This document shows, piece by piece, positions 15,788 through 17,182 of a stretch of 64,000 nt of DNA. The position numbers were made by a program, and so were the translations under genes. This DNA is from Escherichia coli (GTDB lineage: Bacteria; Pseudomonadota; Gammaproteobacteria; Enterobacterales; Enterobacteriaceae): assembly GCF_030013595.1 (NCBI RefSeq), contig NZ_CP122768.1; one strand, given 5' to 3'. Position 1 is the first letter of the stretch. Each line of letters begins with the position of its first letter. The notes below the pieces were generated by a model that did no database searches, had not been told where the DNA came from, and saw nothing but the letters and a program-made list of their open reading frames with translations.

Positions 15788-15985
15788 ATGCTAAAACAGC
15801 AGGATATGACCGAAACCGCCAGAGTGGTGTTTAATGAATTAAGCGTCACCGAGCCGGCGACCGTCGGGGAAATTGCGCAGAATACGTACCTTTCACGCGA
15901 ACGTTGCCAGTTAATACTGACCCAGCTTGTTATGGCAGGTCTGGCTGATTATCAGTTCGGTTGTTACAGACGCCTTCCGCAGTGA
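15788..15985 (+). CDS. Small winged-helix-like protein (possible regulator)
   Basis: 65-aa ORF with AAGGGA ribosome-binding site; segment TVGEIAQNTYLSRERCQLILTQLVMAGL resembles a winged-helix recognition region. Confidence 0.35.
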   Translation: MLKQQDMTETARVVFNELSVTEPATVGEIAQNTYLSRERCQLILTQLVMAGLADYQFGCYRRLPQ

Positions 15986-16135
15986 AGGCTTTTTAATTTG
16001 TGGTAATGGGCGGCTGGTGGGTGTTAGCGGCACCTGCCAGCCATCTGCTCATGCGTTGGGGTCACAAGCAAACCTCAGGCCCATCTGCTTTGCGCAAAAG
16101 CGGTATGAGCCTATCAGAGAAGTGCTTATTGATCT

Positions 16136-17182
16136 ATGACTAATACTGTAAAAATATCCAGTTGTGAGTTAATCAACGCTGATTGCCTGGAATTTATCCA
16201 GACCTTACCGGAAAATTCTGTCGATCTGATAGTCACAGACCCGCCATACTTTAAAGTGAAGCCCGAGGGCTGGGATAACCAGTGGAAGGGCGACGATGAT
16301 TACCTGAAATGGCTGGACCGATGTCTGGCGCAGTTCTGGCGGGTACTGAAGCCTGCCGGAAGTCTCTACCTGTTCTGTGGTCATCGCCTGGCATCTGATA
16401 TCGAAATCATGATGCGTGAACGCTTTAATGTGCTGAACCACATTATCTGGGCGAAGCCGTCCGGGCGCTGGAACGGATGCAACAAGGAAAGCCTGCGGGC
16501 GTATTTCCCGGCAACAGAACGCATTCTGTTTGCAGAACATTATCAGGGGCCATACCTGCCCAAAAATGACGGCTATGCGGCAAAGGGGCGTGAACTAAAA
16601 CAGCACGTCATGGCCCCGCTGATTTCTTACTTTCGTGATGCGCGTGAATCACTGGGGATAACGGCAAAACAGATAGCGGAAGCCACCGGAAAGAAAAACA
16701 TGGCTTCGCACTGGTTTGGTACCAGTCAGTGGCAGTTGCCGAACGAAGGCGATTATCTGAAATTACAGGCGTTGTTTGCGCGTGTTGCAGCAGAAAAACA
16801 TCAGCGCGGTGAACTGGAAAAGCCACACCACCAGCTGGTCAGCACATACAGTGAACTGAACCGGCAATATGCCAGCCTGCTGGATGAGTACAAATCTCTG
16901 CGGCGTTATTTTTCCGTATCGGCTGCCGTTCCGTATACGGATGTCTGGACGCACAAGCCTGTGCAGTATTACCCCGGCAAACATCCCTGTGAGAAACCGG
17001 CGGATATGTTGCGTCAGATAATTACCGCCAGCAGCCATCCGGGAGATTTGGTTGCTGATTTTTTTATGGGGTCGGGATCAACAATAAAAGCAGCATTATC
17101 GCTGGGACGGCATGCAATAGGTGTGGAGCTGGAAGAAGAGAGATTTAACCAGACTGTAAGCGAAATAAAAGAAAATAGTTAA
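16136..17182 (+). CDS. DNA methyltransferase (N6-adenine/N4-cytosine type, DPPY motif first)
   Basis: Motif IV DPPY (LIVTDPPYF) near the N-terminus and SAM-binding FxGxG (DFFMGSGST) near the C-terminus. Confidence 0.8.
   Translation: MTNTVKISSCELINADCLEFIQTLPENSVDLIVTDPPYFKVKPEGWDNQWKGDDDYLKWLDRCLAQFWRVLKPAGSLYLFCGHRLASDIEIMMRERFNVLNHIIWAKPSGRWNGCNKESLRAYFPATERILFAEHYQGPYLPKNDGYAAKGRELKQHVMAPLISYFRDARESLGITAKQIAEATGKKNMASHWFGTSQWQLPNEGDYLKLQALFARVAAEKHQRGELEKPHHQLVSTYSELNRQYASLLDEYKSLRRYFSVSAAVPYTDVWTHKPVQYYPGKHPCEKPADMLRQIITASSHPGDLVADFFMGSGSTIKAALSLGRHAIGVELEEERFNQTVSEIKENS

Follow-up and report, generated by a model that had tools for sequence, protein, structure and literature searches.

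A conserved, apparently undescribed RNA leader ahead of an M.EcoGI/M.EcoGII-family adenine methyltransferase gene in a phiP27-like prophage of Escherichia coli

The stretch of Escherichia coli DNA analysed here (64,000 nucleotides of contig NZ_CP122768.1, RefSeq assembly GCF_030013595.1), referred to as the window, carries a phiP27-like lambdoid prophage that is 99.5% identical to a prophage of the porcine E. coli ETEC4085. On the plus strand of this prophage lie a gene encoding a 65-residue winged-helix protein (positions 15788..15985) and a gene encoding a 348-residue N6-adenine DNA methyltransferase of the beta class (16136..17182). Between them, the 141 nucleotides that end at the methyltransferase AUG (15998..16138) constitute a conserved and apparently undescribed folded RNA. 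A previous sequence-only reading of this DNA had called the two open reading frames (ORFs), had placed the methyltransferase between the antiterminator gene Q and the lysis genes, and had reported no endonuclease gene nearby, and these three statements are borne out. The Q gene (127 residues, 13669..14052, plus strand) is assigned by its match with PHROG 79 (E-value 4.9e-52) and is related to Q21 (phmmer hits with PDB entries 6p18 and 6jnx, E-value 1.9e-9), while the lysis cassette, comprising two holins and an M15 endolysin, is located downstream (18203..19306, plus strand; PHROGs 198, 217, and 465, and RefSeq annotation). The pair is separated from Q by a porin gene. The neighbours of the methyltransferase gene are the winged-helix ORF, tRNA genes, a 132-residue ORF, and the holins, and it is not adjoined by the cognate endonuclease that the sequence-only reading had named as its counter-evidence. 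No cognate endonuclease is found among the ORFs of the 12-21 kb interval or by PADLOC among the neighbours tested, and no restriction endonuclease is annotated across the whole ETEC4085 prophage. An HNH endonuclease gene does occur 3 kb downstream (20168-20518); it adjoins the small terminase subunit gene and is the terminase-associated HNH of a P27/HK97-type packaging module, not a restriction partner. In phiP27, the counterpart of this gene is found directly 5' of the annotated cos site. The assignment to a family, the order of the motifs, the synteny, the lack of an endonuclease, and the RNA structure reported below come from our own analysis.

Pfam analysis of the 348-residue protein reports a match with PF01555, N6_N4_Mtase (E-value 2.6e-44, residues 29-340), and PADLOC assigns it to MTase_II (E-value 3.8e-153). 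The DPPY signature comes first (motif IV, residues 35-38) and the FxGxG signature last (motif I, FMGSG, residues 310-314), as had been read from the sequence, which is the beta-class order. The protein is identical to the published M.EcoGII sequence at 297 of 347 positions (86%), and to the M.EcoGII-type allele of the viral contig L062 at 300 of 346 (87%); in L062, as in the window, the allele belongs to a module formed of the small ORF, the leader, and the methyltransferase gene. By part, the identity with M.EcoGII amounts to 128 out of 134 residues in the N-terminal catalytic segment (residues 1-134) and to 67 out of 78 (86%) in the target-recognition domain (TRD), a four-helix bundle in the M.EcoGII family (residues 160-237). 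The M.EcoGII reference (GenBank EGT69837.1) was machine-read from the supplement of the SUPREM paper (PMC11551740) and contains a few reading errors; as a cross-check, the L062 protein is 98% identical to the printed sequence, and a doubled R, an HH in place of HI, and a dropped residue that distinguish the two look like such errors. At the DNA level, the module matches the phiP27 genes L23-L24 at 92.7% and the modules of many Stx2 phages at 84-90%, including that of phage 1720a-02 (86.6% nucleotide identity). From these comparisons, the 348-residue protein is assigned as a new allele of the known M.EcoGI/M.EcoGII prophage family. Membership in the NCBIfam families for YhdJ-like proteins (PRK11524) or CcrM (equivalog) was rejected, as the scores fall far under the curated cut-offs. 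The solved beta-class chains that return hits, namely PDB 9c3u and 8urk (both named "Methyltransferase"), M.RsrI (1eg2), M1.MboII (1g60), and CcrM (6pbd), align only to the catalytic halves (residues 8-114, and 281-340 or 283-340, E-values 2.6e-25 to 1.5e-15). The ~165 central residues, made up of the TRD and a linker, have no counterpart in any solved chain, and no solved structure of an M.EcoGII-family member was found.

M.EcoGII itself, a 349-residue enzyme of the beta class encoded in a prophage of E. coli O104:H4 C227-11, methylates adenine in any context, in double-stranded DNA, single-stranded DNA, and RNA; the lysogen does not express it, and its constitutive expression slows growth (Murray et al. 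2018, PMC5778455). The same authors place it in a very large family of E. coli prophage enzymes and report that the enzyme of phage 1720a-02 is "very similar" (PMC5778455). A methylome study of O111 Shiga toxin-producing E. coli gives homologues of ~93% similarity as "nonspecific" on the basis of REBASE, and reconstructed ancestors of the M.EcoGII clade methylate DNA and RNA without site preference. The window protein is 73% identical to one of these ancestors, Anc284/SUPREM, and 88% identical to another, Anc291. M.EcoGII, the O111 homologues, and the ancestors together suggest that the whole clade is non-specific. Judged from these relatives, the window enzyme most likely methylates adenines regardless of sequence context, and its membership in the family therefore gives a probable answer to the question of target specificity raised by the sequence-only reading, namely that there is none. 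The "site-specific DNA-methyltransferase" annotation is probably wrong for this gene. Non-specificity, silence in the lysogen, and toxicity are thus properties that we take from the literature on relatives of the enzyme. In E. coli alone, the clusters of this family count thousands of members, and the methyltransferase by itself adds little, being one more allele of a large and characterised family.

The 150-nucleotide stretch between the two ORFs is more conserved among Escherichia, Klebsiella, Salmonella, and Pantoea than the coding sequence that flanks it, and it is not coding since it contains 1-nucleotide indels. A 47-residue upstream ORF (16000-16143, ending 5 nucleotides past the ATG) was considered as a translationally coupled partner of the methyltransferase gene and was rejected, as relatives exhibit 1-nucleotide indels in it and lack its stop codon. 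The leader RNA is predicted to fold into two domains on the plus strand. Domain 1 is a long hairpin composed of P1 (16006-11:16047-52) and P2 (16012-23:16031-42). Domain 2 comprises P3, P4 (16077-80:16109-12 and 16082-84:16105-07), and P5 (16085-91:16097-103), and is closed by P3, of which the segment P3a (16060-64:16130-34) pairs positions -6 to -2 relative to the AUG and the segment P3b (16066-70:16123-27) pairs positions -13 to -9. P3a may have a competitor in an alternative helix, P0 (15999-16003:16062-66). The minimum free energy structure of the window leader (-63.1 kcal/mol, z -3.46) reproduces the same helices, and no Shine-Dalgarno sequence is present at normal spacing before the methyltransferase AUG.

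The fold is supported by covariation among relatives, for which one genome per species was taken, yielding 80 methyltransferase loci from ~30 genera. When 45 sequences are aligned with MAFFT on sequence alone, 90.1% of the cells at the proposed pairs can pair, as compared with 30-41% when the partners are slid by 1-3 columns, and changes on both sides affect 18 of the 41 pairs as compared with 10.4+-1.7 in column shuffles (0/500); the slid-partner controls account for phylogeny, while the shuffle controls ignore it. Alignment to a covariance model brings the paired fraction to 92.3%, with 86 doubly changed cells where 22 are expected. G-U pairs are seen in the plus orientation only, which identifies the RNA as the mRNA strand. 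P3b exhibits both-side changes in four of its five pairs, and P3a is pairable in 95.6% of cells, with its pairs being invariant or changed on one side.

The leader is found immediately upstream of the methyltransferase ATG in 39 of the 80 genome loci and is kept, with compensatory base changes, across ~20 genera of Enterobacterales, among them Mixta, Trabulsiella, Enterobacter, Kosakonia, Kluyvera, Citrobacter, Buttiauxella, Hafnia, Rosenbergiella, Ewingella, Serratia, Lonsdalea, Yersinia, and Providencia. The covariance model returns one match per locus in ~1 Mb of phage and prophage DNA and a single match in the 64-kb window. Every strong, i.e. full-length, match abuts a start ATG, including that of the M.EcoGII-type allele of L062, and from Escherichia to Providencia and Vibrio the leader abuts the start codon of whichever module gene comes first after it. 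Scanning 4.7 kb with Rfam 15 yields no match in 15986-16135 at an E-value of 1 or below, and a scan of 221 nucleotides covering the leader reports only chance-level hits with microRNA and CRISPR-repeat models (E-values 4.5-9.6). A known riboswitch, a ribozyme, and a prophage small RNA (IsrK or StxS) were rejected as identities of the leader for want of any Rfam match, and a full-text literature search with its invariant 15-mer returned nothing. Several natural variants were encountered. In Xenorhabdus and Photorhabdus (loci L121-L151, L159, and L160), a shorter version located ~90-110 nucleotides upstream of the methyltransferase gene keeps the AAAUGG...GCUGGUGG hairpin and the CCAGAGAG loop and is devoid of most of domain 2 (15-22 bits). 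A Klebsiella locus (L083:4208-4346) possesses a full-scoring leader (157 bits) after which no methyltransferase gene is called, and an E. coli viral contig (L059:2029-2129) carries a truncated leader (49 bits) before an intact methyltransferase gene; these last two could inform on the function of the element.

The 65-residue protein belongs to PHROG 331 (E-value 1.4e-37). Its ORF starts at an ATG preceded by an AAGGGA Shine-Dalgarno-like sequence, the mechanically called ORF beginning at a TTG at position 15704. It has 334 homologues, all from Enterobacterales prophages and carrying the name "TrmB family" or "DprA-like WH" in the source records, and 61 representative clusters among 1.84 billion proteins; homologues aligned down to 41% identity display a protein-like conservation. 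The AlphaFold2 model (pLDDT 92) exhibits three helices, H1-H2-H3, and a β-hairpin wing, the canonical winged-helix fold, in agreement with the winged-helix likeness noticed in the sequence-only reading. Foldseek analysis reports generic winged-helix domains only (MarR/OhrR, IclR, O-methyltransferase dimerisation domains, and SelB), none with an E-value of 0.001 or below, and Pfam analysis only weak hits with winged-helix families (TrmB, E-value 0.0079; DprA_WH, 0.11). Given that the Foldseek matches are only generic, the identification of this protein as a DpnI-type N6-methyladenine reader, or as a specific relative of any solved protein, was rejected. Among 80 viral contigs encoding the small protein, 75 extend far enough to show the next gene, and in 73 of these the methyltransferase gene follows at a fixed start-to-start distance of 348-349 nucleotides. 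Two viral loci have the winged-helix ORF beside Q without the methyltransferase: in L006 (700-3564) it is followed by a NanS-p-like 653-residue esterase, and in L068 (3878-5046) by an AraC-like regulator with a weak leader remnant (28 bits) ahead of it. At the species level, the winged-helix gene is directly upstream in 24 of the 39 loci that possess both the methyltransferase and the leader, unrelated genes taking its place in the other 15. The winged-helix gene is a frequent but dispensable companion of the methyltransferase, and very probably not a restriction-modification controller.

The position of the module points to the time of its expression. In 73 of the 75 informative viral loci, an antiterminator gene comes right before the module and holin genes come after it. 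In related phages, Q ends ~40-200 nucleotides before the conserved module, the distance from the antiterminator gene being ~180-200 nucleotides in phage 1720a-02 as well as in prophages of Klebsiella and Pantoea; a Salmonella prophage contains one extra ORF between the two. The antiterminators that precede the module belong to four families (PF06530, PF06323, PF06576, and PF03589), and the module is followed by holin genes in the Klebsiella, Salmonella, and Pantoea prophages and by stx2 in 1720a-02. Lambdoid phages have their late promoter and its terminator in this slot. In the window, a putative late-promoter region (15580..15666, plus strand) comprises a TTTACG-16-TATGAT element (15580-15607), followed by a conserved leader of short length and by the position of a tR'-like terminator (~15639-15665); the promoter-like element comes from a promoter scan, and the pR'/tR' assignment is made from its position. 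Alignment of the Q-proximal regions reveals a conserved hairpin with a U-tract in phiP27, 1720a-02, and other loci, the sequence on its 5' side varying with the type of Q and the sequence on its 3' side being common to all. This hairpin is stable in phiP27 (-17.7 kcal/mol) and degenerate in the window (-8.1 kcal/mol, z -0.43). The region upstream of the small ORF (15606-15787), which includes this hairpin, is conserved across phages with different Q families and contains a near-invariant stretch, CUUGCUGGCUUUUUCGACAAGAGUUAUUGGUAUGUCAC, ahead of the ORF; no significantly stable fold is found there (15610-15800, z -0.81). A terminator scan identifies another hairpin, GCCUUC-CGCAGU-GAAGGC (15972-15989), which overlaps the stop codon of the small ORF and is followed by a U-tract, forming a terminator-like element (15972..15999, plus strand; -8.9 kcal/mol, z -2.4). 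Its stem is maintained in Klebsiella, Salmonella, and Pantoea by compensatory changes between UA and CG pairs. As the module is located on the late strand just past the Q target region, its transcription would be expected only upon Q read-through, and a Q-dependent late transcription of the methyltransferase gene is well supported by this synteny. Being placed behind terminators and behind a leader that is predicted to pair close to the AUG is consistent with a gene that stays silent in the lysogen.

We infer the Q dependence, the anti-restriction role, and the translational gating by the leader from this arrangement and from the properties of the relatives. Upon induction, Q would allow RNA polymerase to read through the intervening terminators into the methyltransferase gene. 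Pairing of the leader near the AUG would limit or gate translation of the transcript, and since the enzyme is harmful to the cell, its expression may in this way be held down at a second level; the leader probably gates translation of this toxic methyltransferase. The newly made phage DNA would then be broadly adenine-methylated ahead of packaging, which would blunt most adenine-sensitive restriction systems of the next host. Taken as a whole, we regard it as probable that the locus encodes a late, non-specific anti-restriction adenine methyltransferase with leader-limited translation and a dispensable winged-helix companion. Of the two roles that the sequence-only reading had offered for a solitary phage methyltransferase, protection against restriction is plausible, whereas the enzyme is unlikely to alter the expression of host genes in the lysogen: the family is reported to be silent there and to do harm under constitutive expression, and the gene here stands behind terminators and the leader. 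We give an even chance to the further proposal that the leader represents a new class of cis-regulatory RNA, dedicated to the M.EcoGII family, with an opening triggered on demand by a ligand, the enzyme, or the winged-helix protein. If this is true, such a class would account for the silence of a toxic and widely used enzyme in lysogens and for its release late in infection. Several chromatin- and RNA-footprinting methods are based on M.EcoGII, which is sold as a reagent, while the natural control of its gene is undescribed, and the leader provides a concrete element for studying the control of genes of this family.

Several observations weigh against this interpretation. The window protein differs from M.EcoGII at ~46 positions, of which 11 fall in the 78-residue TRD, so that some sequence preference of this allele is possible. 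Synteny is the sole evidence for the Q dependence, and leaky expression is conceivable, given that a porin gene separates Q from the module and that the tR'-like terminator is degenerate. As for the leader, the helix next to the start codon, P3a, is compatible with the alignments and is not proven by covariation, and the alternative helix P0 fits them as well.

The weakened upstream terminator and the 11 TRD differences would also suit a sequence-specific orphan methyltransferase active in the lysogen, which would serve as an epigenetic regulator like Dam or CcrM; beta-class orphan regulators of this kind exist, and CcrM is among the distant PDB matches of the window protein. We hold this to be highly improbable, as the close homologues show no specificity and stay silent in lysogens, the reconstructed ancestors that bracket the protein remain non-specific, and the gene belongs to a late operon in which it stands behind terminators and an AUG-proximal pairing leader. 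The leader raises a different question, that of whether it is a constitutive damper or instead senses a ligand (e.g. S-adenosylmethionine or S-adenosylhomocysteine) as a riboswitch, or acts as an autoregulatory operator for an enzyme that methylates RNA. Highly conserved unpaired positions (AAAUGGGCGG, CCAUUC, AACC, and GAGCCUAUCA) within a two-domain fold would suit such a sensor, M.EcoGII does bind and methylate RNA, and P0 and P3a are mutually exclusive, as would be the two states of an expression platform. A P0/P3a switch is accordingly possible, but covariation does not discriminate between the two helices, and the leader bears no likeness to any Rfam riboswitch; we therefore consider a sensing or autoregulatory leader as a tentative option that is somewhat doubtful.

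The remaining rivals concern the winged-helix protein. The sequence-only reading had suggested that it might act like a controller (C) protein, which would bind operators upstream of its own gene and time the expression of the methyltransferase. Its location directly upstream on the same strand, with an invariable spacing in nearly all viral loci, would suit this role, winged-helix folds often bind DNA, and annotation pipelines name it a "TrmB family transcriptional regulator", although the TrmB match is insignificant. C proteins, of about 70-100 residues, are, however, of the Xre type, with an all-helical helix-turn-helix (HTH_3-like in Pfam), which differs from a winged helix. The region 15340-16200 holds only chance-like repeats of 8-12 nucleotides and no palindromic or tandem repeats above them that would resemble a C-box or an operator, and there is no endonuclease whose expression needs a delay. 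The protein is acidic (isoelectric point 5.1), with a largely hydrophobic putative recognition helix (the third helix, CQLILTQLVMAGL), a terminator-like hairpin stands between its gene and that of the methyltransferase, and the linkage of the two genes is incomplete in both directions, as seen in the 15 leader-positive loci and in L006 and L068. The controller role is thus dropped here as very unlikely. An analogy with Com of phage Mu fares better while still being unlikely. According to it, the small protein would bind the leader RNA and open P3, permitting late translation of the methyltransferase. The layout does parallel that of com-mom, with a small upstream gene, a predicted RNA structure next to the start codon, and a toxic modification gene; winged-helix domains can bind RNA, SelB-SECIS complexes being among the Foldseek matches; and the winged-helix gene directly precedes the majority of the leader-positive loci. 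In Vibrio relatives, moreover, the module does contain a Com-like zinc-ribbon ORF. Against this, the leader occurs without the winged-helix gene in those same 15 loci, the winged-helix gene persists in loci that have lost the methyltransferase and sits 5' of the leader, where com sits between leader and methyltransferase, and no RNA-binding signature was found in this acidic protein.

The Vibrio loci (L166:1222-1468 and L168:1200-1436) are the only ones among the 80 genome loci in which such an ORF is found; neither the other 78 nor the window has a CxxC...CxxC Com-like ORF upstream of the methyltransferase gene. There, the leader ends at the AUG of a 38-residue CxxC...CxxC zinc-ribbon ORF that matches Mu Com (PF10122, E-value 1.9e-4; PHROG "gpCom control of modification", E-value 1e-3), and the methyltransferase gene follows with its own AGGAGG. 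Mu mom encodes a late, host-toxic, and broad anti-restriction adenine modification whose translation requires that Com open an RNA structure (PMC6483171). The Com-like Vibrio ORF thereby links the M.EcoGII family to the Mu mom theme of a translationally gated, promiscuous anti-restriction modification. The window would have in common with com-mom a late, toxic, and broad adenine modification and possibly an RNA structure in the start region, and it has a small gene in the module, but Mom is not a methyltransferase, the window contains no Com homologue, and its small gene, which encodes a winged helix and lies 5' of the RNA element, is one that many relatives do without. The window locus shares the logic of the com-mom system and is not a member of it. 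In Mu-like prophages of Haemophilus and Neisseria, alpha-class non-specific adenine methyltransferases replace mom downstream of com-like genes (PMC3299994). These enzymes, Hin1523, Nma1821, and Hia5, resemble the window enzyme in that they are prophage-borne and methylate adenine promiscuously, and they show no detectable activity in the lysogen, for which a Com-type control has been proposed (Drozdz et al. 2012, PMC3299994). They differ from it by the opposite motif order, FxGxG...DPPY, by an unrelated TRD, and by residing in Mu-like instead of lambdoid prophages. With the type II systems that are controlled by C proteins (such as PvuII, AhdI, and Esp1396I), the window shares a small gene for a putative nucleic-acid-binding protein ahead of the modification gene; it has neither endonuclease nor C-box, has a winged helix in place of the Xre helix-turn-helix, and its methyltransferase is probably non-specific. 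The closest likeness is with M.EcoGII and M.EcoGI, which extends to the length class (348 versus 349 residues), PF01555 and the beta-class motif order, and the module of winged-helix ORF, 141-nucleotide leader, and methyltransferase downstream of Q; like them, the window enzyme is encoded in an enterobacterial prophage and has no endonuclease as its partner. The window allele is set apart by its ~46 substitutions and by a phiP27-like host prophage with a porin insert.

Upstream of Q, the prophage carries DnaC- and DnaB-like replication genes. The porin gene that separates Q from the module is OmpC/NmpC-like, as judged from its translation, and lies on the minus strand (14242..15339); its counterpart in the ETEC4085 prophage is annotated as "porin OmpC" in RefSeq. 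The slot between Q and the late module appears as a hot spot for cargo, occupied by the porin gene here and by other cargo in phiP27, where L22 (L001:4750-5979) encodes a 409-residue GIY-YIG-family protein that matches the PD-Lambda-1 defence model (E-value 2e-89). Downstream of the methyltransferase gene, a tRNA-Gly(UCC) gene (17443..17517, plus strand) is identified by ARAGORN and by the Rfam tRNA model (65.6 bits). It is preceded by a tRNA-like sequence (17364..17436, plus strand) that scores 45.9 bits with the same model and is not called by ARAGORN; this sequence is unannotated in the near-identical RefSeq genome and may be a decayed or unusual phage tRNA. At the position of this tRNA region, phiP27 has ileZ/argO. 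The segment 17520-18200 corresponds to the stx2e cargo position of phiP27 and contains here the 132-residue ORF alone (17635-18033), which returns no match in Pfam, PHROG, NCBIfam, or PADLOC, together with several terminator-like hairpins on both strands. Lastly, the prophage integrase gene (387-1649, minus strand) is an uninterrupted ORF of 420 residues, and RefSeq flags a frameshift in that of the ETEC4085 prophage, so that the window copy may be the more intact of the two.

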